A DNA stretch of 64,000 bases, taken from positions 832,001 through 896,000 of the forward strand of contig OZ244065.1 in NCBI GenBank assembly GCA_965215505.1. The letters are read 5' to 3'. Shown one piece after another: positions 2,109 through 61,274 of the stretch; position 1 is the stretch's first letter; every line of letters starts with the position of its first letter. A model generated the notes under the pieces. That model was not told the DNA's origin and searched no databases. It saw only the letters and a program-made list of their open reading frames with translations. The stretch comes from Capsulimonadaceae bacterium (lineage in GTDB: Bacteria > Armatimonadota > Armatimonadia > Armatimonadales > Capsulimonadaceae). Both the position numbers and the translations under genes were made by a program.

Positions 2109-3137
2109 TCAGGGGCGGTGCGCGGCGGACGGGATGAAGTGGACCGCGAAGGCGGCCAGGGCGATGAGGAGGACGAGGGTGCCGAAGACGACGAGGAGGG
2201 TGTTGGAGAACGGCAGGTTGAGCTTGCCGGCGAGGCGGCCCGCGCCCGCCGCGTTCTCCGTCTCGCCCTCGCGCTCGGCGCGCAGGGCGGCGACATCCAC
2301 AGTGGCCGGGTCCTCCAAAGCACCGATGAGCGCGGTCATGGTCGGCCAGCGGTCCGAAGGGTTGCGCCGGATCGCCTTCATGACCGTCTCCTCCAGCGCG
2401 GGCGGGACGTCTTTACGGAACTGGTGCAGCGGCGGGGCTTTGGCGTTGACGTGCTGGTTCATCACGGCCAGCGCGTTGTCGCCCCGGTAGGGCAGGCAGC
2501 CGGCGAGGTACTCATAGAGGATCATGCCCAGGGCATAAACATCTGTCCGGCTGTCCCCCCTCCCCCCCTGAATCTGCTCCGGGGCCATGTAGTCGGGGGT
2601 GCCGACCTGCGAGGACAGGGGACCCCAGGTGACGCGCCGCGCCCCCTGCATGAACGCGATGCCGAAGTCCATCACCTTCGCCTGTCCTTCGGGGGTGATG
2701 ATGACGTTCTCGGGCTTCAGGTCCCGGTGCGCCACATGGTTCTCGTGCGCGTAGGCCAGGGCACGCGCCAGTTGCAGCCCCAGGTCAACGGCCTGCGGGA
2801 AGTCCTTCGGGTCGCGGTGCGAGCCGCGCGCATCCAGGGCATGGCGCAGGGTGTCGCCGGGCACATATTCCAGTACCAGGAACTCCGAGTGGTTCAGGGT
2901 CGCCAGCTCATGGAGGCGCTGGATGTTCGGGTGGTTCAGCAGGTGGCCGATCTTGACCTCGCGCGTGAACCGCTCGTGGGTTGCCACGTCCCCCATGATC
3001 TCCTCATGCGGGAACTTCAGGACGACCCGTTGGTCGTCCTGAGTGTCATGGGCGAGGTAGACGTTGCTCATGCCGCCGTGCCCCAGGGCGCGGATGATCG
3101 AGTAGCGGCCGAGCTGCTGCCCCGGTTCGAATTGCAT
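2109..3137 (-). CDS. Hanks-type Ser/Thr protein kinase with C-terminal TM anchor
   Basis: LGHGGMSNVY, VVLK, HRDLKPEN, DFG and GTPDYMAPE motifs; hydrophobic C-terminal helix. Confidence 0.95.
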   Translation of the reverse strand: MQFEPGQQLGRYSIIRALGHGGMSNVYLAHDTQDDQRVVLKFPHEEIMGDVATHERFTREVKIGHLLNHPNIQRLHELATLNHSEFLVLEYVPGDTLRHALDARGSHRDPKDFPQAVDLGLQLARALAYAHENHVAHRDLKPENVIITPEGQAKVMDFGIAFMQGARRVTWGPLSSQVGTPDYMAPEQIQGGRGDSRTDVYALGMILYEYLAGCLPYRGDNALAVMNQHVNAKAPPLHQFRKDVPPALEETVMKAIRRNPSDRWPTMTALIGALEDPATVDVAALRAEREGETENAAGAGRLAGKLNLPFSNTLLVVFGTLVLLIALAAFAVHFIPSAAHRP

Positions 3138-3146
3138 CGGTTCTGT

Positions 3147-4010
3147 TCACTCCTTTGGGCGGCCGCCGCCCTTTGACCATCGCAGGAACGCTTGCCACCA
3201 CGCGCCATTATTCGGGACGGCGGGCGTGTTTTCCTGTTCCACTTCCAGCACCTTCACGACCTGGACGCTGAGGTTGTCGGTCGCCTGCCGCTCCAGGCCC
3301 AGGGCGATGAGCTGCCGGCAGGCCTCGGCGGGTGCGTGGTCGGCGACGATGGCGGCGATGTCCAGGTCATCCAGAGGCTCCCACAGGCCGTCCGTACACA
3401 GGACGAAGGCATCGCCCGGTTCCAGGACCTCGACGCGGGAGGGGACTTGCAGGACGGGCTGGCTGCCGACGCTGCGCGTGATGATGTGCCGGCGGGGGTG
3501 GTGGCGGGCGTTCTCGGGCGTTAAGATCTGCATCCGCACCAGCTCCGCGACCTCGGAATGGTCGCGCGTGAGCGGCACGATGTTGGTCCGACTCCGGACT
3601 CGATAGGCGCGGCTGTCTCCGACGTGGGCGACATAGGCTTTGTCGCCGACGATTGCCAGCGCGACCATCGTGGTCTGCATGCGGAACGCGCCGGCCTTCA
3701 GGCCCAAGTCGTAAACGTGCAGGTTGGCGCGGGCGAACGCGTGGGCGAGGGCGCGGTCCGGCCGCTTGCCGCCGGCGTAGTAGTCGCTCACCAGGGTCTG
3801 TGCGGCCTCCCGGCTCGCCACGTCCCCCGCCCCGCTCCCGCCGACGCCGTCTGCGACGACGAAGAGACTGCCCTTGCGCCGCCGGACCTCGGCATCGTCA
3901 GGCATCCGGTGCGTGATGAAGTCCTCGTTACGGAACCGGACGTGCCCCTGTTCACTTGTCCCGGCATGGTCAATCATATGTTTTAAAACAGAAGGCCGGG
4001 GGCCGGTCAC
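3147..4010 (-). CDS. PP2C/PPM-family Ser/Thr phosphatase (Stp1/PrpC-like); start may be ATG 3977
   Basis: RFRNED, VADGVGG, HVGDSRAY, LCTDGLW and TDNLS motifs. Confidence 0.93.
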   Translation of the reverse strand: MTGPRPSVLKHMIDHAGTSEQGHVRFRNEDFITHRMPDDAEVRRRKGSLFVVADGVGGSGAGDVASREAAQTLVSDYYAGGKRPDRALAHAFARANLHVYDLGLKAGAFRMQTTMVALAIVGDKAYVAHVGDSRAYRVRSRTNIVPLTRDHSEVAELVRMQILTPENARHHPRRHIITRSVGSQPVLQVPSRVEVLEPGDAFVLCTDGLWEPLDDLDIAAIVADHAPAEACRQLIALGLERQATDNLSVQVVKVLEVEQENTPAVPNNGAWWQAFLRWSKGGGRPKE

Positions 4011-4041: not shown

Positions 4042-5709
4042 CTAGCGCATGGAGACGGACTCGACGCGCATTTCCTTGTGGTCGGGTGCCAGGAACATCG
4101 GCTCCTTACGGATGCCGCTGCGGACGGCGAGGTAGGCGAACGACAGCACCATGAACGAGGCCGAGAAGATCAGGGCGACCTTGGCATCGTACTTGGAAGC
4201 GGCCGTCGCAGACGGGGCGAAGAAGGCGAAGTAGATGTCGCCAATCATCAGGCCGAAGTTCAGGAACATGCCCAGGATCGGCGCAAGCTTGGTGGTGAAT
4301 ACCTCCGCGCCTTTAACGTGCGAGAAAGCAATATAGGTCGCCAGGCACGTCATGCCGTACAGCAGGAACGTCCCCAAGTTCGAGATGATTGCCACTTTCA
4401 GCAGGTTGTCCGAGTTCAGGACGCCATAGCCACCGATGATCGCCGAGATCACGGTCAGCATGATGATCGCATTGTGCGGGGTGTTGTGCTTGCCGTGTAG
4501 GGCACCGAACGGGCCAGGCAGTTCGTCGTCCTTGCCCATGGCGTAGGAGACGCGAACGCCGGTAGACAGGCAGGAGAGAGCAGTTCCGACCAGGGCGAGA
4601 ACGACGGTGGCGGCCATGATGACCTCGAACTGCAAGCCGTGGCCGTGCAGGAGCGAGTCGCCGATGATCTTGGAGAAGTCGCCGATGGGCGCACTGGAGG
4701 CGGCGGCGGCGTCGAACCCGCGCACGATGCTCCCGCCGGCATAGGCGGTCTGGTCAATGGCGTGGTCGGTGATCGAGGTGATTTTCGGGTCGATCATCGA
4801 AAAATTCTGTCCGGCTTTGTCCAGGACGCCCGCGTAGTTCTGGCCGATGAAGTAGTTCGCGCCGAAGTATTCAAAGGAGTAGAAGATGACCGCCTGGATG
4901 ATCAGCGACAGGAGGACGCCGCGCGGGATGTCCTTCTGCGGGTTCTTCGCCTCGGCGGCCAGGGCGGTCGCCGACTCGAAGCCGACCACGAGCAGGATGG
5001 CGATGGTGGACTGGAACAGGAGCTGGCTGAAGCCGTGCGGGCTGATGACGCTCAGGCCATTAGGATGGACATAGGAAACCTCGGGATGCCCGGAGCGGTA
5101 GACGATCGCCAGGATCGTGAAGGTCAGCAGGGCGAGGATCTGGATCACGTTGATGACGACGTTCGCCATGGTCGAGCCGCTGACGCCCCGGTAGGCAATG
5201 GCCCCGGTGATGGCGGCGAAGATGACGCAGAGCGCGACCGGCTGCCACAGATGGCTCGAGTCGCCGAAGGTGGGCTTGAAGAGCTGCACGATGAAGGTCA
5301 GGATCGTCCCCATGAAGGCGACCATGACGCCCGGATATACCCAGTAGTAGAGGTGGGCGGCGCAGCCGATGATCAGCTTGGCGATTCGGGCCAGCTTGAA
5401 ATGGAAGTGCGACTCTTTCTCCAGAAATGCCGCCTCGGCATAGAAGTAGGAGCTTCCCGCGCCACCCTGGGGGTATTTTTTGGAAAGGGTGGCGTAGCAG
5501 ACGGCGGTGAGCAGGGCCACGATGGTGGCGACGGCGACGGACGCCCACATGCTGGTCGCGCCGTAGGCGCTCTGCCCCTGGAAGGTGGTCCAGAGGAACG
5601 CGCCCGGCGCGATAAGCGCCATGGCATTGATGGTGATGCCGGTCAGGCCCAGGGTGGGCTTGAGCGTCCCCCCCGTCGTGACGGCTGAAGCCGAAGTCTC
5701 GACAGCCAT
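4042..5709 (-). CDS. APC-family permease
   Basis: About 12 hydrophobic segments; GFESATALAAEAKNPQKDIPRG and RVSYAMGKD motifs; RBS GAGAGG before ATG 5709. Confidence 0.9.
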   Translation of the reverse strand: MAVETSASAVTTGGTLKPTLGLTGITINAMALIAPGAFLWTTFQGQSAYGATSMWASVAVATIVALLTAVCYATLSKKYPQGGAGSSYFYAEAAFLEKESHFHFKLARIAKLIIGCAAHLYYWVYPGVMVAFMGTILTFIVQLFKPTFGDSSHLWQPVALCVIFAAITGAIAYRGVSGSTMANVVINVIQILALLTFTILAIVYRSGHPEVSYVHPNGLSVISPHGFSQLLFQSTIAILLVVGFESATALAAEAKNPQKDIPRGVLLSLIIQAVIFYSFEYFGANYFIGQNYAGVLDKAGQNFSMIDPKITSITDHAIDQTAYAGGSIVRGFDAAAASSAPIGDFSKIIGDSLLHGHGLQFEVIMAATVVLALVGTALSCLSTGVRVSYAMGKDDELPGPFGALHGKHNTPHNAIIMLTVISAIIGGYGVLNSDNLLKVAIISNLGTFLLYGMTCLATYIAFSHVKGAEVFTTKLAPILGMFLNFGLMIGDIYFAFFAPSATAASKYDAKVALIFSASFMVLSFAYLAVRSGIRKEPMFLAPDHKEMRVESVSMR

Positions 5710-5849
5710 TGGTGTAGTCCTCTCTTGCGTATGGGAACGGTCAGACGCGGCACGACTACGGCGTCGGCAAGAGCCTCGGCAATGAGGGTATAGCGGGACT
5801 CGGCATCGAGGAAGAGCGGCGGCAGAGACAGCAGCATCTCTGCTGCTGT

Positions 5850-5878
5850 AGATTAACACAAAGTAGATGGTTTGTCAA
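5850..5878 (-). promoter_or_regulatory. sigma70-type promoter for the permease-phosphatase-kinase unit
   Basis: TTGACA-17 nt-TAATCT with extended -10 TG. Confidence 0.6.
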
Positions 5879-5926
5879 GGGAGCGGGAAAGAAAAGAAAG
5901 CATAAGACCATGACGAGAAAGCAGAA

Positions 5927-5983
5927 AGGGCAGGGAAACCCTGCCCCTACACGGTTTGCGTAGGGGCGGGGTTCCCCCGCCCT
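5927..5983. repeat. GTAG-type REP doublet (inverted pair)
   Basis: AGGGCAGGGAAACCCTGCCCCTAC ... GTAGGGGCGGGGTTCCCCCGCCCT. Confidence 0.75.
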
Positions 5984-6022
5984 CTTGTGCTCTTCTCCTC
6001 GTGCCGCTCTCCCCCGCCGTCC

Positions 6023-7501
6023 CTACAGCCCGGCGGCGAACGCCGTCGCCTCGTCCTTGTAGGTGTTGAACGGGTTCTTCAGCTCCAGGTGCAGGCGTTT
6101 GTTAATGTAGATCAAGTCCCAGTCAATGACGTAGTCGCGCGAGTTATTCGCCAGTAGCTTGTCAATGACCACGCCGCGCCCTTTGGCCCGCGTGTTCGTC
6201 GGCGGGGTCATGGTGGCTTCAAAGATGCGCCGGTCGGTGGTCGCCCGCTCGATCTGCCCGGCCTGCTCCAGCCCGTAGTACAGGCTGGTTTCGGGGTTGA
6301 CGTTGTGGTATTCCAGGTCCAGCGAGTGCAGGATGTCGTCGCCCCACTTCACGGCCCCGTTCTCGGACTCCATGAAGTCCTCCATCATCTTGCGCTTGGC
6401 GACCCAGTCAAGCTTGTCGGCCAGGAGGTACGGGTCCTTCTCCAGAGCATCCAGGCACTTCTCCCATTCGCCCAGGACGTAGTCAGTCTGCTGGTCGCGG
6501 CCCGTGTACCGTTCCTGGGCGGCTTTCAGGTACAGCCGCTGCAAGTCAACGGCCTTGATGCTGTCGCCGCCCTTGCGCCGGACCATCCACTTCCAGGTCT
6601 GGTCGCGCGAGACGCTCTTGAGGGCTTCCAAAGGGTCGCGCAGCTCCACGTCTTGCAGCAAGACTCCATCTTCAATGAGGTCAAGAACGATGCTGGTCGT
6701 GCCGATCTTCATCAGGGTGGCGTACTCGCTCATGTTGCACTCGCCGAACAGGATGTGCAGCCGGTGCAGGTTGGAGTAGTTGTAGTACGAGTCCCACTTG
6801 GGGTTGATGATGGCCCGGTTGAAGCGGACGCGCGAGCTAATCGTCTTGACGATGTGGTCCGCGCGCTGCGAGAGCTGGAACTCGACCGTCGGGTCCACCT
6901 CGACGCCGTAGAAGTTGCCGACCCACTGGTAATCCACCTCGTAGTCCGAGATGGTCATGATGTTGTTCTTCAGGCTCTTGTAATTGAGCCGGTGCCCACC
7001 GACGCGCCCCACGCCCGCGAAGATCTGGCGGGTGACGAGAAACGGCAGCAGGTAGGAAAGCGCTTCCAGGAAAAAGCGGTCATCAATGGCGACCAGGAAG
7101 TTTTCGTGGCAGCCGAACGTATGCCCGCCGAAGTGGTCCACAGAGTTCGAGTGGAACGAGACCTTGTCCTGCAAGTCCAGCTCGCGCAGGAGCCTTTGCA
7201 GGATGACGCGCCCGGCCTTGTCGTAGGCGACGGCGTCGGCGAAGTCGGTGCATTCGGGCGTCGCGTACTCCATGTGCGAGCCGACGGCGTCAATGTAGAG
7301 CCGCCCGCCCGACCGCAGGAAGCCGCCGCAGCGCGCCGGCTCGAAGGCGTAGTCGCGCGCGTGCAGATCAATCAGGCCCAGCTTGTCCTTGTAAAAGGCG
7401 TGGTCCTTGACCTGCTCGACGACCATCTCCGCCGTGCCGACCGAGTCGTCGCTGACGAGGCAGCCGAACTCGGTCTCGATCCCAAAAATCCGCTTGTCCA
7501 T
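6023..7501 (-). CDS. pafA: Pup/UBact-protein ligase
   Basis: KRIFGIETEFG, GGRLYIDAVGSHMEYATPEC, TFGCHENF, LSQRADH, RLHILFGECNMSE and KLDWVAK motifs; last gene of the proteasome operon. Confidence 0.92.
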   Translation of the reverse strand: MDKRIFGIETEFGCLVSDDSVGTAEMVVEQVKDHAFYKDKLGLIDLHARDYAFEPARCGGFLRSGGRLYIDAVGSHMEYATPECTDFADAVAYDKAGRVILQRLLRELDLQDKVSFHSNSVDHFGGHTFGCHENFLVAIDDRFFLEALSYLLPFLVTRQIFAGVGRVGGHRLNYKSLKNNIMTISDYEVDYQWVGNFYGVEVDPTVEFQLSQRADHIVKTISSRVRFNRAIINPKWDSYYNYSNLHRLHILFGECNMSEYATLMKIGTTSIVLDLIEDGVLLQDVELRDPLEALKSVSRDQTWKWMVRRKGGDSIKAVDLQRLYLKAAQERYTGRDQQTDYVLGEWEKCLDALEKDPYLLADKLDWVAKRKMMEDFMESENGAVKWGDDILHSLDLEYHNVNPETSLYYGLEQAGQIERATTDRRIFEATMTPPTNTRAKGRGVVIDKLLANNSRDYVIDWDLIYINKRLHLELKNPFNTYKDEATAFAAGL

Positions 7502-7526
7502 GGACGCTCTTTCCCCAACCCGTGCC

Positions 7527-8315
7527 CTATTTGTAGCGGGCGATCGTTTCCGTCAGCTCGCCCTCCGACAGCAGCCGGAAGCGGCTCTCCCGGTTCGTGT
7601 CGCGCTCCAGGATGCCGGCCTCAACGGTCCAGCCCTTGCCCAGATGCTCCGTGATGAACGACGAGACATCCTGCTGGCCCTCGCCGTCGGTCGAATAGTC
7701 CGCGTCAGCGCGGTCCTCGGACTCCAGGTGCTTCATGCCGACACCCCAGGCGTACAGGGCGGCGCGCAGGGCGGCGTCCAGGCTCAACGGCCCGCTCTCG
7801 GTCTCGGTCTTCAGGTGCTCGCGCATCCGGTCCTCGGCGTAGGCCGTCCCGGCGACCACGGCCATGCCGGGCGTGGACGAGAACTCGCCGTCATACGACA
7901 GCGTCATCAGCAGGTCGCGGTCCTGAGTCTTGCCGAGTTCCGCGAAGATACCCTTAACGACGATCGGCTGCGCGAACGGGTCCCCGTAGATGCGCTTGAT
8001 GGCCGGGGAGAGCTGGAAGGAGACCAGCCGCTGCACACTGACGTCATCGGGCGAACGGTTGAAGCCCTCCTGATGGGCGGCATCGATCGCGCCGCGCCGG
8101 ATCTGCTCCACGTCGCTCTGGTTGCCGATGGCGCTGAACATCAGCTTGTCATAGACCTCGTAGACCTTGCGCTGCGTCTGCCGCGCCGACAGCAGCATCA
8201 GGCCGCCGCCATAGGTCATGGCGACGACGGGGCTGCCGTCCTTGAGGCGGTCTTCAATGTATTCGTTGCGCTGCTGGATACTCTCGTTCCAGTCGTAGGG
8301 GCTGTAGGAAGGCAA
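7527..8315 (-). CDS. prcA: 20S proteasome alpha subunit (TTG start)
   Basis: YSPYDWNESIQQRNEYI, RKVYEVYDKLMFSAIG and SPDDVS resemble actinobacterial PrcA; RBS GGAG; position in the operon. Confidence 0.9.
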   Translation of the reverse strand: MPSYSPYDWNESIQQRNEYIEDRLKDGSPVVAMTYGGGLMLLSARQTQRKVYEVYDKLMFSAIGNQSDVEQIRRGAIDAAHQEGFNRSPDDVSVQRLVSFQLSPAIKRIYGDPFAQPIVVKGIFAELGKTQDRDLLMTLSYDGEFSSTPGMAVVAGTAYAEDRMREHLKTETESGPLSLDAALRAALYAWGVGMKHLESEDRADADYSTDGEGQQDVSSFITEHLGKGWTVEAGILERDTNRESRFRLLSEGELTETIARYK

Positions 8316-8349
8316 AGGGTTACTCCGGTGTCAGGCCGGCCAGGTCAGG

Positions 8350-8413
8350 AGGGCGAACACAAGGTTCGCCCCAACGGGACCGGCGGCGTAGGGGCGAACC
8401 TTGTGTTCGCCCT
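8350..8413. repeat. GTAG-type REP doublet between prcB and prcA
   Basis: GGGCGAACACAAGGTTCGCCCC ... GTAGGGGCGAACCTTGTGTTCGCCCT. Confidence 0.85.
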
Positions 8414-8442
8414 TCTTATGTTTTCAGGTCTGGACCGTCTCG

Positions 8443-9225
8443 CTATGAGCGGCCGAGCGCGGCCTTGATCTCACTCTCGGTGAAGTCGCGGATGCCCTCG
8501 GCGGTGATGTACTTGGCGGCGGGCAGGAACTTCGCCGAGCCGCCCGTGGCCGTGTCTAGATCGGCGGCGATGTCGAGGAGGGTCAGCGTCTCGCGCAGGG
8601 CGGTCTCGCGATCCATGTCGCGGAAGGGGCCTTTCGTCTTCAGGATGTACTCGAAGGCACCCTTGATCGGGGCCGAGCCGCTGCCCGCCGCGCCGTATTC
8701 GGCGGTCTCGAACTGGCCGCCCAGTACGTCATAGAAGTAGATGCGGCCCTGAGTTGTCTCCCGGTCGAACGTGGACAGGATGGGGATGAAGGCGCCAATG
8801 CCTTGCAGAGCCGCCGGGACGTTATTGGCGATGACGCGCTGAAGTTCCATCAGCTTGCCCTCCTGGGACATAGGCTGGAGCTGGGAGCGCTCGAAATACT
8901 TGAAGGCGTGGCGCAGGTAGCGGACGACTTCCACGCTCTTGGCGAACGAGCCTGAGATCGAGATCAGGGTGTAGTCGTCCAGGGCGAGTACCTTCTCGGC
9001 CTGGTCGTACATGACGGTGTAGCCCGCCGTCGCGCGCCGGTCGGCGACGTTGATCAGGCCGTCCTTGTACTTGACGGCGATGACCGTGGTGCCGTGCGTG
9101 TCCACGTCCCGCGCGCCGGGCACGTTGGGGACGGGGGTCGGCATGGGAAGGCGGTCATTGCCCAAAACTTTGTCGGCGAACAGGTCGGAAAAACCGCCCA
9201 CGCCCTCGGGTGAAAAACGCAGCAT
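8443..9225 (-). CDS. prcB: 20S proteasome beta subunit with 45-aa propeptide
   Basis: THG/TTVIA autoprocessing site (Thr1), ADRRAT, EKV and GSGS Ntn-hydrolase motifs. Confidence 0.93.
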   Translation of the reverse strand: MLRFSPEGVGGFSDLFADKVLGNDRLPMPTPVPNVPGARDVDTHGTTVIAVKYKDGLINVADRRATAGYTVMYDQAEKVLALDDYTLISISGSFAKSVEVVRYLRHAFKYFERSQLQPMSQEGKLMELQRVIANNVPAALQGIGAFIPILSTFDRETTQGRIYFYDVLGGQFETAEYGAAGSGSAPIKGAFEYILKTKGPFRDMDRETALRETLTLLDIAADLDTATGGSAKFLPAAKYITAEGIRDFTESEIKAALGRS

Positions 9226-9289
9226 AGGGTGTCAACTTCTGGTAACGTAAGTCATAGGAACGGGAAGAAAGAACGGGCAAGAAGAAAGA

Positions 9290-9315
9290 AGGGCGAACAC
9301 AAGGTTCGCCCCTAC
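9290..9315. repeat. Single GTAG-type REP
   Basis: AGGGCGAACACAAGGTTCGCCCCTAC, identical to the copies at 8350-8413, 57368 and 61195. Confidence 0.85.
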
Positions 9316-9328
9316 AGTCATCGCGGCC

Positions 9329-9517
9329 TTACTGGCCGCTGCGCTGGCGGTAGCGGCGGGCCTGGTCGGGGTCCACGCGCTTCATGCGCTTGAGCAGGTC
9401 GGAGCGGTCGGGCCGCTGGACGTCGGGCTTGCTGGGGCCGGTCTCGTCGCCCTCCTTGCGGAGCGGGTCGGCGGGGCCGGCGGGCCGCGTGGCGCGGTCT
9501 TCATCGGTCATGGGCAT
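9329..9517 (-). CDS. ubact: Ubiquitin-like protein modifier UBact (62 aa, ends RSGQ)
   Basis: DLLKRMKRVDPDQARRYRQRSGQ matches the UBact consensus (C-terminal R[S/T]G[E/Q]). It sits in the pup position between dop and prcB; RBS GGAGG before ATG 9517. Confidence 0.9.
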   Translation of the reverse strand: MPMTDEDRATRPAGPADPLRKEGDETGPSKPDVQRPDRSDLLKRMKRVDPDQARRYRQRSGQ

Positions 9518-9595
9518 TCGTTCGTTCCTCCCTCGGTATTGTTTTGATGGCAAGGCTGGATTCGACGGCGCGGGCCGGGAATCCTCTAGGAAACG

Positions 9596-11095
9596 CTATT
9601 TGCCGCGTTCGCGGAAACGGCGTATTAAATCTTCCAGAGTGTCGGCGGCCCGGAGGTCGGTCATGGCCTGCGCCACCGCTTCGGGCGTCAGATAGTCGTC
9701 CAGGTCAACCATCCACGATTCCTGTTCGGTCCGCAGGACGACCTTGTTCCAGCCAACGACGCCGATGGCGTCGGCGAACCTCTCCACGAGGTAGCCGCGC
9801 ATGGCGGCGCGGGTGGTGTCGGGCGGCCGGGTCATGGCGGCCTCGACCGTGCCGTCATCGGTCAGGCGGACCATCTCGCCGGCCTGCTCCAGGGCGTAGT
9901 ACAGGCCCTCGTCGGGGTCCACATTGCTGTAGGCTAGGTCGAACGACTGCACCGTCTCGTCGTCCCAGCCGATGCCCTCGGACTCGACATAATCGGCCAG
10001 CAGGCCGCGCTTGGCGACCCAGTCCAGCCGGTCCCCGAGCGAGAGAGGGTCGGACTCGAGGCCGTCCAGCGTTCTTTCCCACTCGCGCAGGGTCCAGTCG
10101 GTGTCCGCCCCGCGCCCCGCCAGCTTGTCCTTGGCGGCAGCCAGGAAGACGCGCTGGATGTCTACGGCCCCCATCGTGCCCGTCTCGGCCTCGACCAGCC
10201 ACTTGTAGGTCTGATCCCGTGCGATGGACTTGATCGCCTCGGTCGGCTTCTTCAAGCGTACCCAGGGCTGCCAGCCCTGCTCCAGAAGCGAGGTGACCAG
10301 ATAGGTCGTCCCGATCTTCAGGGCCGTCGCGTACTCGGACATGTTGGCGTCGCCGCAGATGACATGCAATCGCCGCCAGTCGCGCGGGTCCGTGTGCGGC
10401 TCGTCGCGCGTGTTCACCAGCGGGCGGCGGTGCAGGGTATCCACGGACGCCTCTTCCGTGAAGAAGTCGGCGCGCTGCGAGAGCTGGTACAGGCCCATGT
10501 CGCCGCGTGGCTCGATCCCCAGCTTGCCCGCGCCGGCGTAGATGATCCGGGTCGCGAAGAACGGCAGCAGGCCGGACAATAACTGCGCGAACGGCGTTTC
10601 ACGCGGGATCAGATAGTTCTCGTGGGTGCCGTAGGACGACCCGTGAAAGTCGGTGTTGTTCTTGAAGATGTGAACGCGACTCGCGTCCGGCTGCTCCGCC
10701 CGCGCCCGCGCGGCGGCCAGCACGACCCGCTCCCCGGCCTTGTCGTGGGCGACCAGGTCAAACAGCGTCGCGCACTCGGGCGTCGCGTACTCCGGGTGCC
10801 CGTGGTCGTTGTAGAACCGCGCCCCGTTCACCAGCACCCGGTCAGCGCGCTCCTCTTCCACGGGCAGCGGCTTGTAGTCCGGCGCGTCCAGCTTGGCGTC
10901 TTCGGGGTCGAAGTTCAGCCGGTCCACATGAAAGCCGCGCATGTCATTGCGCGGGTCCTCGCCCTTGTAGTACCAGGGGCAGGCGATCTTGCCCGCGTAG
11001 GCCCGGACCACGGCGCGGGACTCGACAAGCAGATCGCCCGCGCCCTTGCCGTCCACGGCGATGCCATATTCTGTTTCGGTGCCAAATAGCGGCAA
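9596..11095 (-). CDS. dop: Pup/UBact deamidase-depupylase (TTG start)
   Basis: FGTETEYG, NGARFYNDHGHPEYATPEC, KNNTD..GSSYGTHENY, NTRDEPH and RRLHVICGDANMSE motifs. Confidence 0.93.
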   Translation of the reverse strand: MPLFGTETEYGIAVDGKGAGDLLVESRAVVRAYAGKIACPWYYKGEDPRNDMRGFHVDRLNFDPEDAKLDAPDYKPLPVEEERADRVLVNGARFYNDHGHPEYATPECATLFDLVAHDKAGERVVLAAARARAEQPDASRVHIFKNNTDFHGSSYGTHENYLIPRETPFAQLLSGLLPFFATRIIYAGAGKLGIEPRGDMGLYQLSQRADFFTEEASVDTLHRRPLVNTRDEPHTDPRDWRRLHVICGDANMSEYATALKIGTTYLVTSLLEQGWQPWVRLKKPTEAIKSIARDQTYKWLVEAETGTMGAVDIQRVFLAAAKDKLAGRGADTDWTLREWERTLDGLESDPLSLGDRLDWVAKRGLLADYVESEGIGWDDETVQSFDLAYSNVDPDEGLYYALEQAGEMVRLTDDGTVEAAMTRPPDTTRAAMRGYLVERFADAIGVVGWNKVVLRTEQESWMVDLDDYLTPEAVAQAMTDLRAADTLEDLIRRFRERGK

Positions 11096-11114
11096 AAAGA
11101 TGTCTCCTGAGAAG

Positions 11115-11140
11115 GCCCCGCCGCCCGTGGGCGGCGGGGC
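11115..11140. terminator. GC-rich hairpin between arc and dop (weak terminator or mRNA stabiliser)
   Basis: GCCCCGCCGCCC-GT-GGGCGGCGGGGC; no clear U-tract. Confidence 0.45.
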
Positions 11141-11149
11141 GAGGCCAGC

Positions 11150-12895
11150 CTAAATCACGTTCCGGCGCGTCGTCTGCGTCCCCTTCTTGGGGGAAATGGG
11201 GTTCAGGCGCACGACGTTGTCCGGCTCATAGTCCAGGAGCTTGAGCCAGTCCTCAATGTTGTCGGTCTTTGGGAAGATCTCGTTTTCCTTGAACTCGGTG
11301 CGGACGGCCCGCTCCATGTCGTCCATCGAGACGCCTTCCTTGGTGCTCTTGACGTCAATGGACCGCTTGATGGCGAAGTCCTTGGCCCGCTCGACGACGG
11401 AGGTCAGCAGAGCGCCCGAGACAAGGTCCTTCCAGTAAAGCGTGTCTACGGAACCGTTCTTGAGGTAGACCTCCAGGAACTCCGTCTCGTGGGTCTTGGA
11501 CCAGATCAGCTCGGTCGTCTTGTCTATCAGGAGCCGACGCGCGCCCTCAACCCCGCCCTGTTCGTCCACCGTCTTGTAGTCGAACGGCAGATCGGCATGG
11601 AGGTAGATGCCCAGGATGTCGTTCGTACTCTTCTTGTCCGGACGGACGACCTTCACCTTGCGGTCAATGCGCTCCGGGCGGAGGATCGCCGGGTCAATGT
11701 AGTCCGGGCGGTTCGAGGTCAGCATGACCACGACGTTCTCCAGCGACACCAGGCCATCCATCTCGGCGCAGAACTGCGGCACGACCGTGTTGGAGATGTT
11801 CGTGAACCGGCCCGAGGACCGCGTCCGCAGGATGCTCTCGGCCTCGTCAATGAAGATGAAGACCAGGTAGCCTTCTTTGGCTTTCTCGCGGGCCGTGGTG
11901 AAGATCTCGCGCACCTGACGCTCGGACTCGCCGAGCCACATGTTCAGGATCTTCGGGCCGTTGATGTACATAAAGTACTCTTTGACGTCCCGCTTGGTCC
12001 GCGCCTTGTACTCCTGCGTGATGTTGTAGGCGGTCGCCTTGCCGATGAGCGTCTTGCCGCAGCCGGGAGGGCCATACAGCAGGATGCCCTTCAGCGGGCG
12101 CTTGCCGAACCGCTCGTACAGCTCGGGGTAAAGCAGGGGCAGCTCGATGGCGTCCTTGATGACGCCGATGGCCTCCTGCTGGCCACCGATCTTGTCCCAG
12201 GGGATCTCGGTGACTTTGTCCAGGAAGAAGTCCTGGTTCTCCTTGGTGGCGAAGGCTTCCAGGGCGACCCGGAAGTTCGGCTCCATGCGAACCTCCGTGC
12301 CCGCCTTGATGACCGAGTCCGTCAGGCCCGCGCCGCGCATGACGACGCGCGTGTTCTGGCCCTGCTGGTCGCCGCCGATGCGGAGGCGTCCGTCTTCCAA
12401 TGCCTCGCTGACCTTGACGACCTGGCCGTTCTGGGCCGGGCCGAGGTCGCCGACGACGGCGTAAGCCTCGTTGACCTTGACGCGCGTCCCCGCCATGAGC
12501 GTGTCCAGCTCGACGTTCGGGTCAACATTGGTGTAGAAGTCGTTATCGCCCATTGCGATGTTGGCCGTCCCGTCCTCGTTGGCGGATAGGAAAACGGCCA
12601 CACGGTTGGCGGGCGCAGTCAGCTTGTTGTAAGCCTCGTCGTACTTCGCGATCAGCTCCTGCGCCTCAGCGGACTGCTGCTCGTCCACCTCGAGCTGGTG
12701 CCGGAGCAGCAGGAGGTACTGGTAGTTCGGGTCAATCGGGTCGGTGCTTTTCAGGATCTCGTCCAGCACGAAGATCGCCCGGACCGCCGTCTCCTGGTTG
12801 CGGGGGATGCTTCCCCCGCCGCTGCCGCCGTTATTGCTTTCGCGACGATTGCCGCCGCGCTTGGTGTCGTTACGTTCGTTGCGCTCGCTCGCCAT
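11150..12895 (-). CDS. arc: Proteasomal AAA+ ATPase ARC/Mpa
   Basis: N-terminal coiled coil, OB-domain region, Walker A GPPGCGKT, pore loop NMWLGE, Walker B IFIDE, SNRPDYIDPAILRPERID, WKDLVSGA; RBS GAGAGG before ATG 12895. Confidence 0.93.
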   Translation of the reverse strand: MASERNERNDTKRGGNRRESNNGGSGGGSIPRNQETAVRAIFVLDEILKSTDPIDPNYQYLLLLRHQLEVDEQQSAEAQELIAKYDEAYNKLTAPANRVAVFLSANEDGTANIAMGDNDFYTNVDPNVELDTLMAGTRVKVNEAYAVVGDLGPAQNGQVVKVSEALEDGRLRIGGDQQGQNTRVVMRGAGLTDSVIKAGTEVRMEPNFRVALEAFATKENQDFFLDKVTEIPWDKIGGQQEAIGVIKDAIELPLLYPELYERFGKRPLKGILLYGPPGCGKTLIGKATAYNITQEYKARTKRDVKEYFMYINGPKILNMWLGESERQVREIFTTAREKAKEGYLVFIFIDEAESILRTRSSGRFTNISNTVVPQFCAEMDGLVSLENVVVMLTSNRPDYIDPAILRPERIDRKVKVVRPDKKSTNDILGIYLHADLPFDYKTVDEQGGVEGARRLLIDKTTELIWSKTHETEFLEVYLKNGSVDTLYWKDLVSGALLTSVVERAKDFAIKRSIDVKSTKEGVSMDDMERAVRTEFKENEIFPKTDNIEDWLKLLDYEPDNVVRLNPISPKKGTQTTRRNVI

Positions 12896-13703
12896 GCGTT
12901 CTTTCCTCTCGTCTTTCGCTCGCTTCTTCCCCATAAACCAAATCGTCTTTCGCTTCTGTGTTGTACCCAATTCGCCGCGCTTTGGTCGGGGCCTTGGCCG
13001 GGAGGGGCATTTTCCAGTCGCCGGTCAGCAGTTCGACCATGCGCTCGGTGTTTCCCTTTTCGAATGCGTCCACCCACTGCGCCACCGTCTCCTGCGCGTC
13101 CGGGTCGGAGGCGGCCAGGTCGCGCACGTCGGCGGGGTCGCCGCCGGAGGGGTGACGGGCCAAGGTCTGCCGGGCACGAGCCAGGGCGTTCTTGACGGCG
13201 GGCACCGTCGTCTCCAGGATGCGGGCCGTCTCCTCGGCGCTCCACCCGAGCACGTCCCGCAGGACCAGGGCGGCCCGCTGCCGGGGCGGGAGGCTCTGCA
13301 CCAGGGCGACAAACCCCAGGCGGACGTTCTCGCGCCCCTGCCCTGCCTGGGCGGCGTCGGGGGCCTGGTCACGCAGGCCGGTTTCGCCGACCTCGTCGAG
13401 CGACTGCCAGACGGGCGGGCGGCGCTGGACGTGGTTCAGGCACAGGTTGTGCGCGATCCGGTAGAGCCAGGCCCGCAGACTGGCCCGTCCTTCAAACGAG
13501 TCCAGGGAGCGGAAGGCGCGCAGGAAGGCCTCCTGCACCATGTCCTCGGCCTCGGTCGGCGTCCCGGTCAGCCGGTAACAGTACGCGATCAGCTCGCGCC
13601 GGTACGGCTCGGTCAGCTTGCCGAAGGCCTTGCGGTCGCCCCGCCGGGCGCGTTGGAGTGCCGCCGAGGCGGCATGAACAGGCGGATCGGTAATCGTGGC
13701 CAC
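12870..13703 (-). CDS. ECF sigma-70 factor (SigG/ECF56-like) with truncated SnoaL-like extension
   Basis: Region 2 AEDMVQEAFLRA...WLYRIAHNLC; region 4 LPPRQRAALVLRDVLGWS..ALARAR; extension VAQWVDAFEKGNTERMVELL; GTG start with AGGAG. Confidence 0.85.
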   Translation of the reverse strand: MATITDPPVHAASAALQRARRGDRKAFGKLTEPYRRELIAYCYRLTGTPTEAEDMVQEAFLRAFRSLDSFEGRASLRAWLYRIAHNLCLNHVQRRPPVWQSLDEVGETGLRDQAPDAAQAGQGRENVRLGFVALVQSLPPRQRAALVLRDVLGWSAEETARILETTVPAVKNALARARQTLARHPSGGDPADVRDLAASDPDAQETVAQWVDAFEKGNTERMVELLTGDWKMPLPAKAPTKARRIGYNTEAKDDLVYGEEASERREERTHGERAQRT

Positions 13704-13741
13704 GAAACAGTCTCCTGCCTAAACGGAAAAGGGTAGTTACA

Positions 13742-13769
13742 AGACGCCCTCAGCCTCGGGTTAAGTTCC
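13742..13769 (-). promoter_or_regulatory. Putative ECF-type promoter upstream of the sigma gene
   Basis: GGAACTT...CGTCT arrangement on the minus strand. Confidence 0.4.
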
Positions 13770-13845
13770 CGCTGCTGATGTGACACGGCGGGGATAAGAA
13801 AAGAACCGGTGCCGGAAAATTATTTTCCTGACTGATGTTGCGCGC

Positions 13846-14017
13846 CGATCGAGGCAGGCGAGGACGAGTGATTAAAATCACTCGCTCCGGTCGGATTTGT
13901 CCAAGGGACAAGTTGATAGCATGAGACGGTCCTTCTTCTGTCCTCGGCTCTTCTGTCCCCTGGACAGGTCCCCCTCAGCGAGTGATTTCAATCACTCGTC
14001 CTCGCCTGCCTCGATCG
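13846..14017. repeat. REPIN/MITE-like element with 41-bp terminal inverted repeats
   Basis: 13846-13886 and 13977-14017 are reverse complements with 1 mismatch. Each arm holds the palindrome CGAGTGATT-NN-AATCACTCG; inner IR TGTCCAAGGGACA/TGTCCCCTGGACA. Confidence 0.85.
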
Positions 14018-14065
14018 CCCTACTCAGTGTCGTGGCGAACCCCGCGTATAGCGTCTTTCCCGCCG

Positions 14066-16204
14066 TCACTCGCCCGTGATCTTCAGCACGTCCTCGCCGT
14101 ATTTCTCCAGCCTGCCGGGGCCGACGCCGCTGACTTCCAGCAGGTCGTCCGAGTTCTGCGGCCGGGCGCGCGCGATCTCCATCAGGGTCTTGTCGCTGAA
14201 CACGCAGTAGGGCGGCAGAGACTCGCGCGAGGCCTGCGAGGTCCGCCACAGCTTCAGGGTGGCGAGGACGTCGTCGCCGGCCGAGTCCCCGCCGCCCGCC
14301 GAAGCGTCGCGCCATCGGCTGGGGTCGCGCGGCAGCGGGGCGGCGACCGGCAGGCGGTCCGACCAGGCCGTCCGGCCCTTGGGCGTGACGGTGCAGACGA
14401 AGTAGGCGTCCTCGTCGCCTTGGTGCATCAGCCCCTCGGCGAACAAGGCCTCCAAAAACTTGTCCACGGCGGCGACGCTTGCCCCCCGGAACAGGCCGCC
14501 GAGCGGCTGGCGCGGCGTCCCGGCGTCCTTGTCCCCGAGAGTTCCGGCCCCGCGCAGCATCTTGTTCAGCCGGGCCTTGCCGACGGCGGGCCGCAGGGCG
14601 TCCAGGCCGTGCAGGACGGAGTGGATGTCGCCGGGGTCTATCTGGACCGGCATGGGAATCTGCGGCAGGCGCACGGACGCGGCGGCCTGCCCCTCGGCCT
14701 TCGGCGCGTCGCAGTTGTCGCAGCAGAAGGAGGTCGGGGGCGGCTCCTGGCGGTCGCCGAAGTAGTCCAGGACGGTCCGGCGGCGGCAGGCGGTCGTCTT
14801 GCAGTAGTCCACGATCTCGTCCAGACGGCGCAGGCGCTCCGCCCGCTGCTTGGCGAGGCCTGCCGCGATGGAACGGCGGGCGTCCGGCGGGAAATCGCGC
14901 CGGGCCAGTGTCAGGGTCACGCCGTCGCCGGTCTGGGCGACCCGCTTGACGAGGTCCGCCCGCTCCAGTTCGCCTAGCGCCAGCCGGCCCTTAATGTCGC
15001 TCCAGTCCAGGGCCATGCCCCAGGTCTTGGGCAGGCGGGCGACATTGTCCTTGTCGGCATGGCCGCGCACCTGGCCGAAAGCCTGCTCGACCGAGCCGAC
15101 GGTCAGGGCCTCGTTGTCAATGAACCACTCGCGCGTGCGCCGGTCGGCGAAGTGGTACAAGATGACGCACCGGCTGCGGCGGCCGTCGCGCCCGGCCCGG
15201 CCCGCCTCCTGGTAGTAGCTTTCCAGGCTGTCCGGGCAGGCGCAGTGGACGACGAACCGGACGTCCGGCTTGTCAATGCCCATGCCGAAGGCGTTGGTGG
15301 CGACCAGCACCTGACGCTCGCCGTCCAGCCACTCGCGCTGCATCTGGTTCCGCAGGTCGGCGTCCAGGCCTGCGTGGTACATCCCCGCCCGCTGCCCCAG
15401 GGGGGCGAGGGCGGCGTCGGCGGCCTCGAAGACCTGCTCGCACTGCTTGCGCGTGGCGCAGTAGATCAGCCCGCTGCCGCCAAGAGCCGAAAGCTTGGGA
15501 AGGGCACGGGTCAGCTTGTCCTCGCGTTCGTTTTCGCTTTTACACCGATGCACGGAAAAGTGGAGGTTGGGCCGGTTGAAGCCGCCGACCAGGACGAGCG
15601 GGTCGCGCATGCCGAGGTTGGTGACGATGGACTGCTGGACGCGCTTGGTCGCGGTCGCCGTGGCGGCCAGCAGGGGCGGACTGCCCAGCGACTCGACCAC
15701 TTCGCGAAGGCTGAGGTAGTCGGGCCGGAAGTCGTGGCCCCATTCCGAGATGCAGTGTGCCTCGTCCACGACGAACCGGGCGATCTTGACGCTCCGCAAG
15801 GCGTCCATGAACGCCCCCGACCGGAATCGCTCGGGGGCGACATACACCAGACGCAGCCGCCCCGCGCGCATCTCGCGCAACAGGTCGTTCTGCTCATCTA
15901 GCGATTGCAGCGAGGTCAGGCAGTTACACCCGATTCGGGCAAACTCGGGTCGGCGGTTCAGGGCATCCACCTGGTCTCGCATCAGGGCGATGAGGGGGGA
16001 GACGACGAGGGTGACGCCCTCAGAAAGAGCGGCGGGGAGCTGGAAGCAGAGGGACTTGCCCGCCCCCGTCGGCATGACGACCAGCACGTCGCGGCCTCCC
16101 AGGGCGGTCCGCACGGCCTCCTCCTGCTGCGGGCGGAACTCGCCGTAGCCGAAGAAGTTCTGCAAAGATCGGGACAGGTCTGATGCGGCGTCGGTGATGG
16201 TCAT
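14066..16204 (-). CDS. recQ: RecQ-family ATP-dependent DNA helicase with HRDC domain
   Basis: MPTGAGKSLCFQ, VDEAHCISEWGHDFRPDY, AFGMGIDKPDVR, YYQEAGRAGRDG, Zn-binding CRR..CCDNC, HRDC PPYCVFSDKTL. Confidence 0.93.
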   Translation of the reverse strand: MTITDAASDLSRSLQNFFGYGEFRPQQEEAVRTALGGRDVLVVMPTGAGKSLCFQLPAALSEGVTLVVSPLIALMRDQVDALNRRPEFARIGCNCLTSLQSLDEQNDLLREMRAGRLRLVYVAPERFRSGAFMDALRSVKIARFVVDEAHCISEWGHDFRPDYLSLREVVESLGSPPLLAATATATKRVQQSIVTNLGMRDPLVLVGGFNRPNLHFSVHRCKSENEREDKLTRALPKLSALGGSGLIYCATRKQCEQVFEAADAALAPLGQRAGMYHAGLDADLRNQMQREWLDGERQVLVATNAFGMGIDKPDVRFVVHCACPDSLESYYQEAGRAGRDGRRSRCVILYHFADRRTREWFIDNEALTVGSVEQAFGQVRGHADKDNVARLPKTWGMALDWSDIKGRLALGELERADLVKRVAQTGDGVTLTLARRDFPPDARRSIAAGLAKQRAERLRRLDEIVDYCKTTACRRRTVLDYFGDRQEPPPTSFCCDNCDAPKAEGQAAASVRLPQIPMPVQIDPGDIHSVLHGLDALRPAVGKARLNKMLRGAGTLGDKDAGTPRQPLGGLFRGASVAAVDKFLEALFAEGLMHQGDEDAYFVCTVTPKGRTAWSDRLPVAAPLPRDPSRWRDASAGGGDSAGDDVLATLKLWRTSQASRESLPPYCVFSDKTLMEIARARPQNSDDLLEVSGVGPGRLEKYGEDVLKITGE

Positions 16205-17189: not shown

Positions 17190-17562
17190 TACCTCATTCG
17201 CGGCGTCACCGTGTACATCCTGCACATCCGGCACGGCTGGGTGCGAACGGCGTTTATGAGTAAAAGCCCTCGGCCCTGAAGCCTCCCCGGCCCTGAAGGG
17301 CCGGTATACTCTTGAGTGAAAGTGTCTGCGATACTGAGGAGGAGACGGCAGGGCAGAGGTGAGGAGGAACCGTCAAAATCCCTTACCTGCCGTCCTCGCC
17401 GTCTTCAGTCCAGCCTTCAGTGCCGTCCTCAGTCTGGTAGTCAGCTTAGTCTTCAGTCGCGGAGCGACTTTCATTCAACAGTAGACCGGCCCTTCAGGGC
17501 CGGGAACTGTTGCTCTCATAAACTTTATTCACATCCGGCACGGCTCACAAAGGCCCCTCTCG
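17190..17562 (+). pseudogene. Remnant of a ParE/RelE toxin C-terminus split by a REPIN
   Basis: YLIRGVTVYILHIRHG at 17190-17237 and HIRHGSQRPL at 17530-17559 resemble VRVLHVWHGAQRP of the neighbouring toxin. Confidence 0.55.
17252..17523. repeat. REPIN-like element (GTAGACCGGCCCTTCAGGGCCGG family)
   Basis: 40-bp arms 17284-17323 and 17467-17506 (36/40 match); outer arms GTTTATGAG/CTCATAAAC; 16-bp direct repeat CACATCCGGCACGGCT at 17223 and 17530. Confidence 0.8.
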
Positions 17563-17564
17563 AC

Positions 17565-18500
17565 CTACTGCGGCTGTTCGTAGATCCGCGCCAGCATCTG
17601 GTCGAAGCCCAGGGGGGTCAGCTTGAAGAGTTCCTTGATGTCCTGGCTGATCGTGATGTTGTCCAGGGCGAGGTTTTTGAGCTGGTCGCGCGTCACGGGC
17701 GGTTTGGTGAGGATTTTCTCCATGACGGTCGCCGCCGCATACAGGAGCGGGATGGGGGCGTGCAGCAGGGGCTTCTTCGGCTTGCCGAGCGATTTGGCGA
17801 TGCCCTTGATAAGCTCGTTGAAGGAGAGCTGGGTCGCGCCGCCGATCTCGTAGATCTGGTTGATCGTCTCGCCCATGACCAGCGACTTGACGACGCACTG
17901 GACCAGGTCTTCCACCCAGACCGGCTGGAACAGGTTGAAGCCGGAACCGGGGACGGGGATGACCGGGAACGGGGCGTTGATGGGCAGCCCGCCATGCAGG
18001 ACCAGGTCCTTCATCTGGGCAATGAACTCGCCGTCAGGGCCGATGACGAGGGAGGGCCGGAAGATGGTGTACGGGAACTCGCTGCCGATAACGATACGCT
18101 CGGCCTGGTACTTGGTGCGCGAGTACTCGGCGGCGGCATTCAGGCTGGACCCGATGGCGCTCATGTAGACCATCCGGCCGTCGAAGCCCGCCCGCTTGGC
18201 CTCGTCCACGACGTTGCGGGTGCCCTCGACGTGAACGCGCTGGAAGGTCTGCCCCTTGCGCTTGATTTCGGCGATGATGCCGACGAGGTGGATGATGGCG
18301 TCCACGTCCTTGAACATCTCGGAGGTCAGCGTCACGGCGTCGGAGATGTCCACGCCGGGGATGTATTCCACGCCCTCCACGCGGTTCTTGCGAATCGGCA
18401 CCAGGCGCGCAAGCCCGCGCACCGGATGCCCCACCTTGACCAACTCCGCGCAGACGTGCCGCCCGATAAACCCGGAGGCCCCCGTAACCAGTACCGTCAT
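17565..18500 (-). CDS. NDUFA9-like NAD(P)-dependent epimerase/dehydratase (atypical SDR)
   Basis: VTGASGFIG, IHLVGII, YSRTK, FRPSLVIG and FQPVWVEDL motifs. Confidence 0.9.
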   Translation of the reverse strand: MTVLVTGASGFIGRHVCAELVKVGHPVRGLARLVPIRKNRVEGVEYIPGVDISDAVTLTSEMFKDVDAIIHLVGIIAEIKRKGQTFQRVHVEGTRNVVDEAKRAGFDGRMVYMSAIGSSLNAAAEYSRTKYQAERIVIGSEFPYTIFRPSLVIGPDGEFIAQMKDLVLHGGLPINAPFPVIPVPGSGFNLFQPVWVEDLVQCVVKSLVMGETINQIYEIGGATQLSFNELIKGIAKSLGKPKKPLLHAPIPLLYAAATVMEKILTKPPVTRDQLKNLALDNITISQDIKELFKLTPLGFDQMLARIYEQPQ

Positions 18501-18608
18501 TGGTGCGTTTCCTATCTTATGAAAATCTTTCTGCCGCTATGATACCCCACAGCAAGCGAAAGGAGAACGCGCGGGCGGTCCTGGGGCGGCGTATGGTATA
18601 ATCAGGCC

Positions 18609-38703: not shown

Positions 38704-38705
38704 GG

Positions 38706-39455: not shown

Positions 39456-39466
39456 TTCTTGTCTCC

Positions 39467-56020: not shown

Positions 56021-56052
56021 CCGCTTCCCTTTATTAGACCGCCGACTGCCCT

Positions 56053-57312: not shown

Positions 57313-57557
57313 GAGGGGCGCGATTCATCGCGCCCTCGTGTCCTGCCGCGCCCTCGTGCCCTGCCCCGTAGGGGCGAACCTTGTGTTCGCCCTTCCTGTT
57401 CCTGCTCGCCCTTCCTGTTCCTGCTCGCCCTCCTCAATCTAGGAAGGATGGGTGCAATAAGCGCCCACGGAAACACGAAGCCCGCCCGGCGCATCTGCGC
57501 CGGACGGGCTTCTCACGGACGGGCTTCTCACGGACGTGCCTCTCACGGACGTCCTTA
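57313..57557. repeat. Composite repeat cluster (REP palindromes plus short tandem repeats)
   Basis: GGGGCGCGATTCATCGCGCCC; GTAGGGGCGAACCTTGTGTTCGCCC; duplicated CTTCCTGTTCCTGCTCGCC; 15-bp unit CGGACGGGCTTCTCA x3-4 at 57501-57557. Confidence 0.8.
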
Positions 57558-61168: not shown

Positions 61169-61274
61169 AACAGGAAGGGCGAGCAGGAACAGGAAGGGCG
61201 AACACAAGGTTCGCCCCTACGTCTTTGCGTTTATCATGTCTGCGTGCCGCATAGGGGCGCGGTGAATTGCGCCC
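61169..61274. repeat. REP cluster; 53 bp are the exact inverted copy of 57367-57419
   Basis: AACAGGAAGGGCGAGCAGGAACAGGAAGGGCGAACACAAGGTTCGCCCCTACG plus TAGGGGCGCGGTGAATTGCGCCC. Confidence 0.85.

Follow-up and report, generated by a model that had tools for sequence, protein, structure and literature searches.

The name UBact reportedly goes back to Lehmann, Udasin, Livneh and Ciechanover, who are said to have described UBact conjugation-proteasome loci of Gram-negative phyla in 2017 (BBRC 483:946). In this work, we analyzed a locus of this type in a 64,000-nucleotide stretch of DNA (hereafter, the window) from a Capsulimonadaceae bacterium of the phylum Armatimonadota (assembly GCA_965215505.1, contig OZ244065.1, positions 832,001 to 896,000). 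The locus is probably a working operon for UBact tagging and proteasomal degradation, similar in action to the Pup-proteasome system of actinobacteria.

Loci of this type are already known, as they have been published from genome analyses (2008 and 2017), are covered by Pfam and NCBIfam models, and go under the name UBact in GenBank entries from the phylum. In the first of these analyses (Iyer, Burroughs and Aravind 2008, PMC2588565), tags that resemble Pup and end in G[EQ] were predicted for nitrospirae and the verrucomicrobia-chlamydia clade, where they neighbor genes for PafA paralogs and for the proteasome. The accessible portion of that paper treats the tags as Pup orthologues and does not have Armatimonadota among its named groups, whereas later models make UBact a family of its own. 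Sporadic Dop/PafA homologues in Armatimonadetes are mentioned in the accessible text of Hecht et al. 2020 (PMC7947786), and a term search of the available text of a 2025 minireview (PMC12288473) found no mention of non-actinobacterial systems.

When compared with the UBact loci represented by PF20513 and NF033388, the locus studied here has the same modifier family, gene set, gene order, and phylum, with no difference of substance, and it counts as an intact but ordinary example of a system that is already described and recognized by databases. It resembles the actinobacterial Pup-proteasome system in its six functional parts and their order, in the Dop loop and Dop active site, in the OB and AAA domains of its Mpa-like ATPase, in the predicted Thr1 chemistry of the proteasome, and in a tag ending that alternates between Gln and Glu. 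Unlike in the actinobacterial system, the tag has no detectable Pup match and ends in SG[EQ], the ligase candidate lies outside the PafA clade, the ATPase ends in RRNVI instead of GQYL, and all the enzymes score under the equivalog cut-offs. A separate ligase clade, a tyrosine-free ATPase tail, and insertions of elements resembling repetitive extragenic palindromes (REP-like elements) were not found in the searchable literature on UBact loci.

Gene content and the UBact modifier

Six intact open reading frames (ORFs) are encoded in the same direction on the minus strand between positions 6023 and 12970, in the order arc/mpa-like, dop-like, UBact, prcB, prcA, and pafA-like (Table 1), and no frameshifts or internal stops were found in any of the six. 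This is the order arc-dop-modifier-prcB-prcA-pafA that the initial annotation had read from the sequence. Its broader claim of an intact UBact pathway is supported by the protein families, the active sites, and the gene order, but "pafA" has to be taken as a positional label, as the protein fails the PafA model. The ATPase gene has an alternative TTG start at 12970 that would make the protein 25 amino acids (aa) longer, and the dop-like gene starts with a TTG that has AGGAG 7 nt upstream. Genome-wide, the dop-like and pafA-like genes are the only PF03136 genes and there is only one UBact gene, while PF00227 has three matches: prcA, prcB, and a 192-aa ORF elsewhere.

The UBact gene starts with an ATG preceded by GGAGG, and its product ends in RYRQRSGQ; both the 62-aa frame and this ending, which had been contrasted with Pup-type ends, were verified. 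The protein scores 81-82 bits against PF20513 (cut-off 27.8, E 3.9e-23) and 82.2 bits against NF033388 (cut-off 35), and passing the curated cut-offs of both hidden Markov models confirms the proposed membership in the UBact family. The search returned 253 homologues, and the organism names among the 120 listed are all Armatimonadetes, Capsulimonadaceae, Chthonomonadaceae, or Chthonomonadales. In NCBI/GenBank records, the closest of them are called "ubiquitin-like protein UBact". A longer frame of 74 aa starting from a TTG was rejected, as it is not the form of the relatives: among the 120 listed representatives, 55 have 62 aa and 35 have 61 aa.

The C-terminus of these 120 listed cluster representatives is SGE in 75 and SGQ in 45. 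A scan of one genome per species gave 205 UBact-encoding stretches, and the best 80 of those 205 are the basis for the counts of tag ends and gene order given here. Across these 80 loci, UBact ends with Q 43 times and with E 37 times. Under the Pup paradigm, a terminal Gln such as the one found here implies a deamidation step. No match to the Pup family was obtained for any of 44 UBact sequences at E up to 10, in a search in which the HMMER filters drop most weak matches and no profile-profile comparison was made, and the UBact profile had no match among PDB chains at E up to 10.

The Dop-like and PafA-like enzymes

The Dop-like protein scores best against the Dop family model TIGR03688 (448.6 bits, under the cut-off of 492.3), 101 bits over the PafA model (347.4), and its best match among solved structures is Dop 4b0r with 357 bits, against 241 for PafA. 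The active-site and loop residues of AcelDop, as given in the accessible text of Cui et al. 2021 (PMC8599861), are E8, E10, W47, R90, Y92, D94, H95, E99, H155, H231, H241, and W453, of which E8, E10, R90, Y92, D94, H95, E99, H155, and H241 are the metal-binding and catalytic set. All 12 of the residues that could be mapped from that text are kept in the Dop-like protein, as E7, E9, W41, R93, Y95, D97, H98, E102, H158, H234, H244, and W449. They comprise the Glu pair of GxExE, the Dop-loop Trp, the Arg-x-Tyr-x-Asp-His at the catalytic Asp, a Glu, three His, and the C-terminal Trp. The Dop loop is present ahead of strand beta2, with W41 aligning with W47 of AcelDop, and 90 residues separate GxExE from the catalytic Asp, compared with 77-115 in classical Dop and 44-50 in six core PafA-clade representatives. 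The role that had been proposed for this protein, activation of a Gln-ended tag, is thus backed by a Dop loop and by every active-site residue mapped from the available text.

A search of 1.84 billion representatives recovered 5037 relatives, and trees were built from two subsets. The FastTree analysis had 124 rows, made up of the two window proteins, 11 orthologues from the related loci, and those 111 of the 150 listed representatives that are 420-640 aa long. A quick IQ-TREE run, with no outgroup and no approximately unbiased (AU) test, used 59 rows picked clade by clade from these 124, and clade labels were checked by NCBIfam on 10 representatives and by source names. In IQ-TREE, the Dop-like protein falls in a UBact-type Dop clade (11 rows, support 100), and this clade joins classical Dop in a group of 21 rows with a value of 90 in the Shimodaira-Hasegawa-like approximate likelihood ratio test (SH-aLRT), and FastTree agrees.

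The PafA-like protein has no Dop loop, with 62 residues from GxExE to the catalytic Asp versus the 90 of the Dop-like protein. Beside the catalytic Asp it carries Val-Gly-Ser, which is listed as PafA-specific in Table 1 of Hecht et al. 2020 (PMC7947786); the stretch reads YIDAVGSHMEY, with one extra Ala (D71-A-V-G-S-H76) relative to YLD-VGSHPEY in C. glutamicum PafA. Across 44 aligned sequences, G7, E9, E11, R67, Y69, D71, H76, E78, H132, E133, N134, R213, and H249 are invariant, and identity between orders is 59-69% for the PafA-like protein versus 47-59% for the Dop-like protein. About 20-40 additional residues stand before the QLSQRAD strand, and the AlphaFold model has a predicted local distance difference test (pLDDT) value of 88. 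The PafA-like protein is not a canonical PafA, but its catalytic core is kept, and it is the presumed UBact ligase.

We also modeled the PafA-like protein together with UBact residues 25-62. The interaction prediction score from aligned errors (ipSAE) was 0.85, 0.85, and 0.84, and the best of three controls reached 0.01. In a benchmark, 58 of 80 solved complexes and 2 of 110 mismatched pairs attained the ipSAE mark, counts that hold only roughly here because custom alignments were used for each partner. The runs have at least 79% of contacts in common, with a partner pLDDT of at least 66. In the predicted complex, UBact 39-61 lies along PafA-like residues 372-416 and reaches E11 and D71-H76, that is, the active site. 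As a solved Pup-PafA complex exists, part of this result may be due to likeness to it, even if the UBact profile by itself has no hit among solved chains. As a model, the complex supports binding of the UBact tail in the active site of the PafA-like enzyme.

The ATPase and the 20S core

The ATPase has the Pfam domains AAA, Prot_ATP_ID_OB_N, and Prot_ATP_ID_OB_C and scores 450.7 bits against TIGR03689, under the cut-off of 504.75. Its best solved relative is Mpa of M. tuberculosis (315 bits, aligned residues 77-575), and the N-terminal helical pair is conserved ahead of a Pro-Ala-Asn hinge. The tail reads TRRNVI. It ends in [VI][IV] in all 66 related loci and has a basic residue three from the end in 61 of them, a strong conservation that fits a docking role.

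The beta subunit scores 146.9 bits against TIGR03690 (cut-off 191.9). In alignments with the mature beta chains of Rhodococcus and M. tuberculosis, their first residue pairs with residue 46 of this subunit, suggesting a 45-residue propeptide and T46 as the predicted Thr1, and the catalytic residues Asp17 and Lys33 were read from the sequence as D62 and K78. The alpha subunit is the most divergent part of the operon, with 67.4 bits against TIGR03691 (cut-off 139) and 43-53% identity to its Chthonomonadales orthologues.

Conservation across relatives

The titles of the best 80 loci are of Armatimonadota type, except for seven named "bacterium" or "uncultured bacterium" and one metagenome-assembled genome (MAG) labelled Janthinobacterium lividum, a label that is probably a binning error. 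In the nearest locus (L004), UBact is 100% identical and the ATPase and the PafA-like protein are 97% identical to those of the window. The order arc-dop-UBact-prcB-prcA-pafA-like was found in 41 of the 51 loci with enough flank for six genes, and the UBact gene keeps its place between the dop-like gene and prcB in related loci. Where at least 1.8 kb of upstream sequence is available, a dop-like gene lies beside UBact in 74 of 76 loci, irrespective of whether the tag ends in Q or E.

The ten exceptions to the six-gene order lack the last gene (three loci), have a Fimbriimonas-type dop-UBact-prcB trio (two), or read dop-UBact-prcB-prcA-pafA (two), dop-UBact-prcB-prcA (one), UBact-prcB-prcA (one), or UBact-prcB-prcA-pafA (one). 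In some Armatimonadota lineages the operon is thus split. No pafA-like gene follows prcA in L033, L034, and L036 despite 10 kb of flank, nor in L035, where the contig ends 2.3 kb past prcA. In L059 and L064, no arc or dop match adjoins UBact, L064 having only 1.3 kb upstream, and the Fimbriimonadaceae loci L075 and L078 keep only dop-UBact-prcB together. An Armatimonas locus (L083, 5596-5908) has a second, shorter UBact-like match with 53% identity directly after the first, which may be a tandem partial duplicate.

Spacer elements, expression, and neighboring genes

The coordinates of the operon and its adjoining features are collected in Table 1, and the family matches of its genes lie well outside what chance would give.

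Table 1. Features of the UBact-proteasome locus, with positions in the window
Feature	Position	Strand	Details
ECF-type sigma factor gene	12870-13703	-	Sigma70_r2 and Sigma70_r4_2
Mpa/ARC-like proteasomal AAA ATPase	11150-12895	-	581 aa from ATG; AAA and both OB domains (Pfam)
Dop-like protein, putative deamidase/de-UBactylase	9596-11095	-	499 aa; Pup_ligase PF03136, E 1e-153
UBact modifier	9329-9517	-	62 aa; PF20513 and NF033388
REP-like palindrome directly 3' of the UBact stop	9291-9312	-	Hairpin with T-rich tail, scored terminator-like
Proteasome beta subunit, prcB	8443-9225	-	260 aa; PF00227, 81 bits
Inverted pair of REP-like palindrome in the prcB-prcA spacer	8351-8412 (8351-8372, 8391-8412)	.	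Palindrome search
Proteasome alpha subunit, prcA	7527-8315	-	262 aa, TTG start; PF00227, 29.3 bits (cut-off 22.4)
Second Pup-ligase-family enzyme, PafA-like, presumed UBact ligase	6023-7501	-	492 aa; PF03136, 421 bits, E 8e-126
Terminator-like hairpin, probable operon end	5926-5948	-	75 bases past the pafA-like stop; 10-pair stem, 7 G-C pairs, T-rich tail

The REP-like palindrome is 22 bases long and has five exact copies in the window, where none is expected. Three are in spacers of the UBact operon, between its genes; the other two are at 57371-57392 and 61196-61217. Genome-wide, there are 108 copies at up to two mismatches, often as inverted pairs, and the reversed control gave 0. Contigs from relatives omit the REP-like site after UBact (joint 9230>9321) and have 8 bases in place of 115 in the prcB-prcA spacer (joint 8327>8443, in 4 of 4 runs). 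They thus skip both REP-like sites, which makes these lineage-specific insertions.

Upstream of the operon, the stop of the gene for an extracytoplasmic function (ECF)-type sigma factor overlaps the ATPase start by 26 bases, and the sigma factor has a C-terminal extension of about 95 aa. The gene lies directly upstream of arc in all 26 of the loci L004-L032 that reach that far and is not found there in the Chthonomonadales loci. Through this sigma factor, the operon may be linked to a stress regulon. A sigma-70 promoter scan of 5800-14200 gave 1 site versus 0.9 expected, so no promoter can be named. The 54-base ATPase-dop spacer holds a G+C-rich hairpin at 11115-11140 on the minus strand, with an 11-pair stem and a 3-base loop, which the terminator scan did not list because it has no T-run.

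None of the RNA-labelled runs had more than 7% of the sampled words. Contigs from two metatranscriptomic runs of one study, with 88% likeness, cover the pafA-like gene, prcA, prcB, the UBact area, and arc; DNA carry-over is possible in such contigs, and they show neither level nor ends of transcripts. Their thin cover over dop fits the lower conservation of dop and is not evidence of silence.

Several other genes of the window were noted. The operon is followed downstream by a gene for an amino-acid permease (4042-5859) and, past it, by paired genes encoding a PP2C phosphatase and a Ser/Thr protein kinase (2109-4010, minus strand). A DNA methyltransferase (N6_N4_Mtase) with a RAMA domain is encoded at 25291-26436 on the minus strand. 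At 54758-57312 on the plus strand, an ATPase with tetratricopeptide repeats (TPR) and a classical AAA domain with lid_3 is followed by a TPR-rich ORF of 419 aa; we rejected the idea that these two are paralogs, as they have only TPR repeats in common. Four long ORFs of 309-652 aa (17316-18542, 28131-29156, 38697-39626, and 47194-49152) gave no hit to Pfam at E up to 1e-5 and, in this high-GC DNA, are putative genes.

Discussion

By homology with the Pup system, we infer for this operon a chemistry, substrates, and a degradation outcome of the same kind. UBact would be synthesized with a C-terminal Gln, which the Dop-like enzyme would deamidate to Glu. The PafA-like enzyme would then activate the side-chain carboxylate of the terminal Glu with ATP and join UBact to target lysines, an attachment modeled on what Pup undergoes. 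The Mpa-like ATPase, presumably as a hexamer, would bind the disordered tag via its N-terminal helices, unfold the substrate, and feed it into the alpha/beta 20S core, and the Dop-like enzyme could also strip the tag.

Several observations weigh against a system that works in this way. Five of the six proteins are under the NCBI equivalog cut-offs for the actinobacterial families, and literature searches found no experimental study of any UBact system, nor is any of the six papers found to cite the UBact identification experimental by title, which bears out the scarcity of experiments on UBact chemistry and substrates that had been assumed at the outset. The RNA-library contigs come from relatives that are about 90% identical and are no proof of transcription of the operon itself. 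Most of the remaining points concern the PafA-like enzyme and the ATPase tail, and they bear on two different explanations.

The first explanation is that the tagging chemistry is shared out differently, with the PafA-like protein as a second hydrolase or regulator and the Dop-like or an unlinked enzyme conjugating UBact, which we consider unlikely. The PafA-like protein scores 305.4 bits against the PafA equivalog model TIGR03686, far from the cut-off of 551.3 and from the 657 and 693 bits of canonical PafA representatives; its score against the Dop model is 288.6 bits, also under the cut-off. Against solved structures it scores higher with Dop (227 bits) than with PafA (193). Only three of nine PafA-type alpha-loop positions are matched (His, Ser, and Ser), and among the residues that the accessible text of Hecht et al. 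gives as common to Dop and PafA, Thr-Thr is replaced by Val-Arg and Arg by Lys, the Lys of an NPK motif. The DEPH stretch is WDSY. According to the accessible text of the same paper (PMC7947786), changing the Arg to Ala abolished the activity of M. smegmatis PafA.

Structure and phylogeny belong among the points against the main reading as well. The alpha-loop region is modeled without a helix, but this carries little weight because the region is of low confidence (pLDDT 61-63, blocks 221-240). Foldseek against the PDB gives template modeling (TM) scores of 0.80-0.82 for Dop and 0.79 for PafA, which are too close for the fold to decide between a ligase and a hydrolase, and we rejected it as a criterion. 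The tree assigns the PafA-like protein to a clade of its own (11 rows, SH-aLRT 99) that is distinct from the one formed by canonical PafA (95). The branching order of the four main groups has no resolution in IQ-TREE, and the same applies to the FastTree backbone, so we claim neither orthology to PafA nor a separate origin from the trees. The nearest outside relatives of the PafA-like protein include Gemmatimonadota "PafA2 family" proteins, and the Gemmatimonadota members of its clade retain the standard NTRDEP motif.

What speaks for the PafA-like protein as the ligase, and thus against a different division of labor, is that the genome has only two PF03136 genes and one of them shows a complete Dop signature with its Dop loop. 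The product of the second gene combines the PafA-type Val-Gly-Ser insertion and an invariant catalytic core with the absence of a Dop loop, and the C-terminus of UBact is predicted to lie in its active site. Furthermore, a conserved operon would be pointless if the tag had no ligase.

The second explanation is that UBact tagging is mainly regulatory or non-degradative and that Mpa-like docking of the ATPase on the 20S core does not take place. Mpa requires its C-terminal GQYL for opening of the 20S gate, according to the accessible text of Yin et al. 2021 (PMC8142254), and neither a GQYL end nor a Tyr in the last three residues occurs in any of the 66 related loci. Together with the two Fimbriimonadaceae loci that keep just the dop-UBact-prcB trio, the altered tail speaks for this explanation. 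Even so, we regard this explanation as quite improbable, since 41 of 51 loci keep the ATPase, the tag, the two enzymes, and the two 20S subunits together as an operon, the beta catalytic residues are kept, and the tail, tyrosine-free as it is, is conserved strongly enough to fit docking.

That the operon is the decaying, non-working leftover of a Pup system acquired by horizontal transfer, as the scores under the equivalog cut-offs and the REP-like elements inserted in two spacers might hint, is highly improbable given the frames without frameshift or internal stop, the conserved active-site residues, the high amino-acid conservation across families of the phylum, and the location of the REP-like copies between genes and never inside them.

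We therefore keep to a working UBact-proteasome operon as the probable reading. A further and much more tentative proposal concerns its origin. The UBact system of Armatimonadota, with the Gemmatimonadota-type relatives of its ligase, might be a deep sister lineage of the Pup system instead of a recent actinobacterial copy. The ligase would then be a third branch of Pup ligases and deamidases that acquired or retained ligase activity with another alpha-loop solution, and the unfoldase would open the 20S gate via a tyrosine-free, basic-hydrophobic tail in place of GQYL. We offer this as a possibility that is rather doubtful at present.

In conclusion, the remaining interest of this locus lies in its non-canonical ligase and its ATPase tail, which raise the questions of whether a ligase can work with Lys in place of an essential Arg and how the ATPase docks without GQYL. 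The complete, single-contig genome of 6.18 Mb would be helpful for answering them, provided that the strain is available in culture. Outside Actinobacteria, ubiquitin-like tagging tied to the proteasome is represented mainly by UBact systems.

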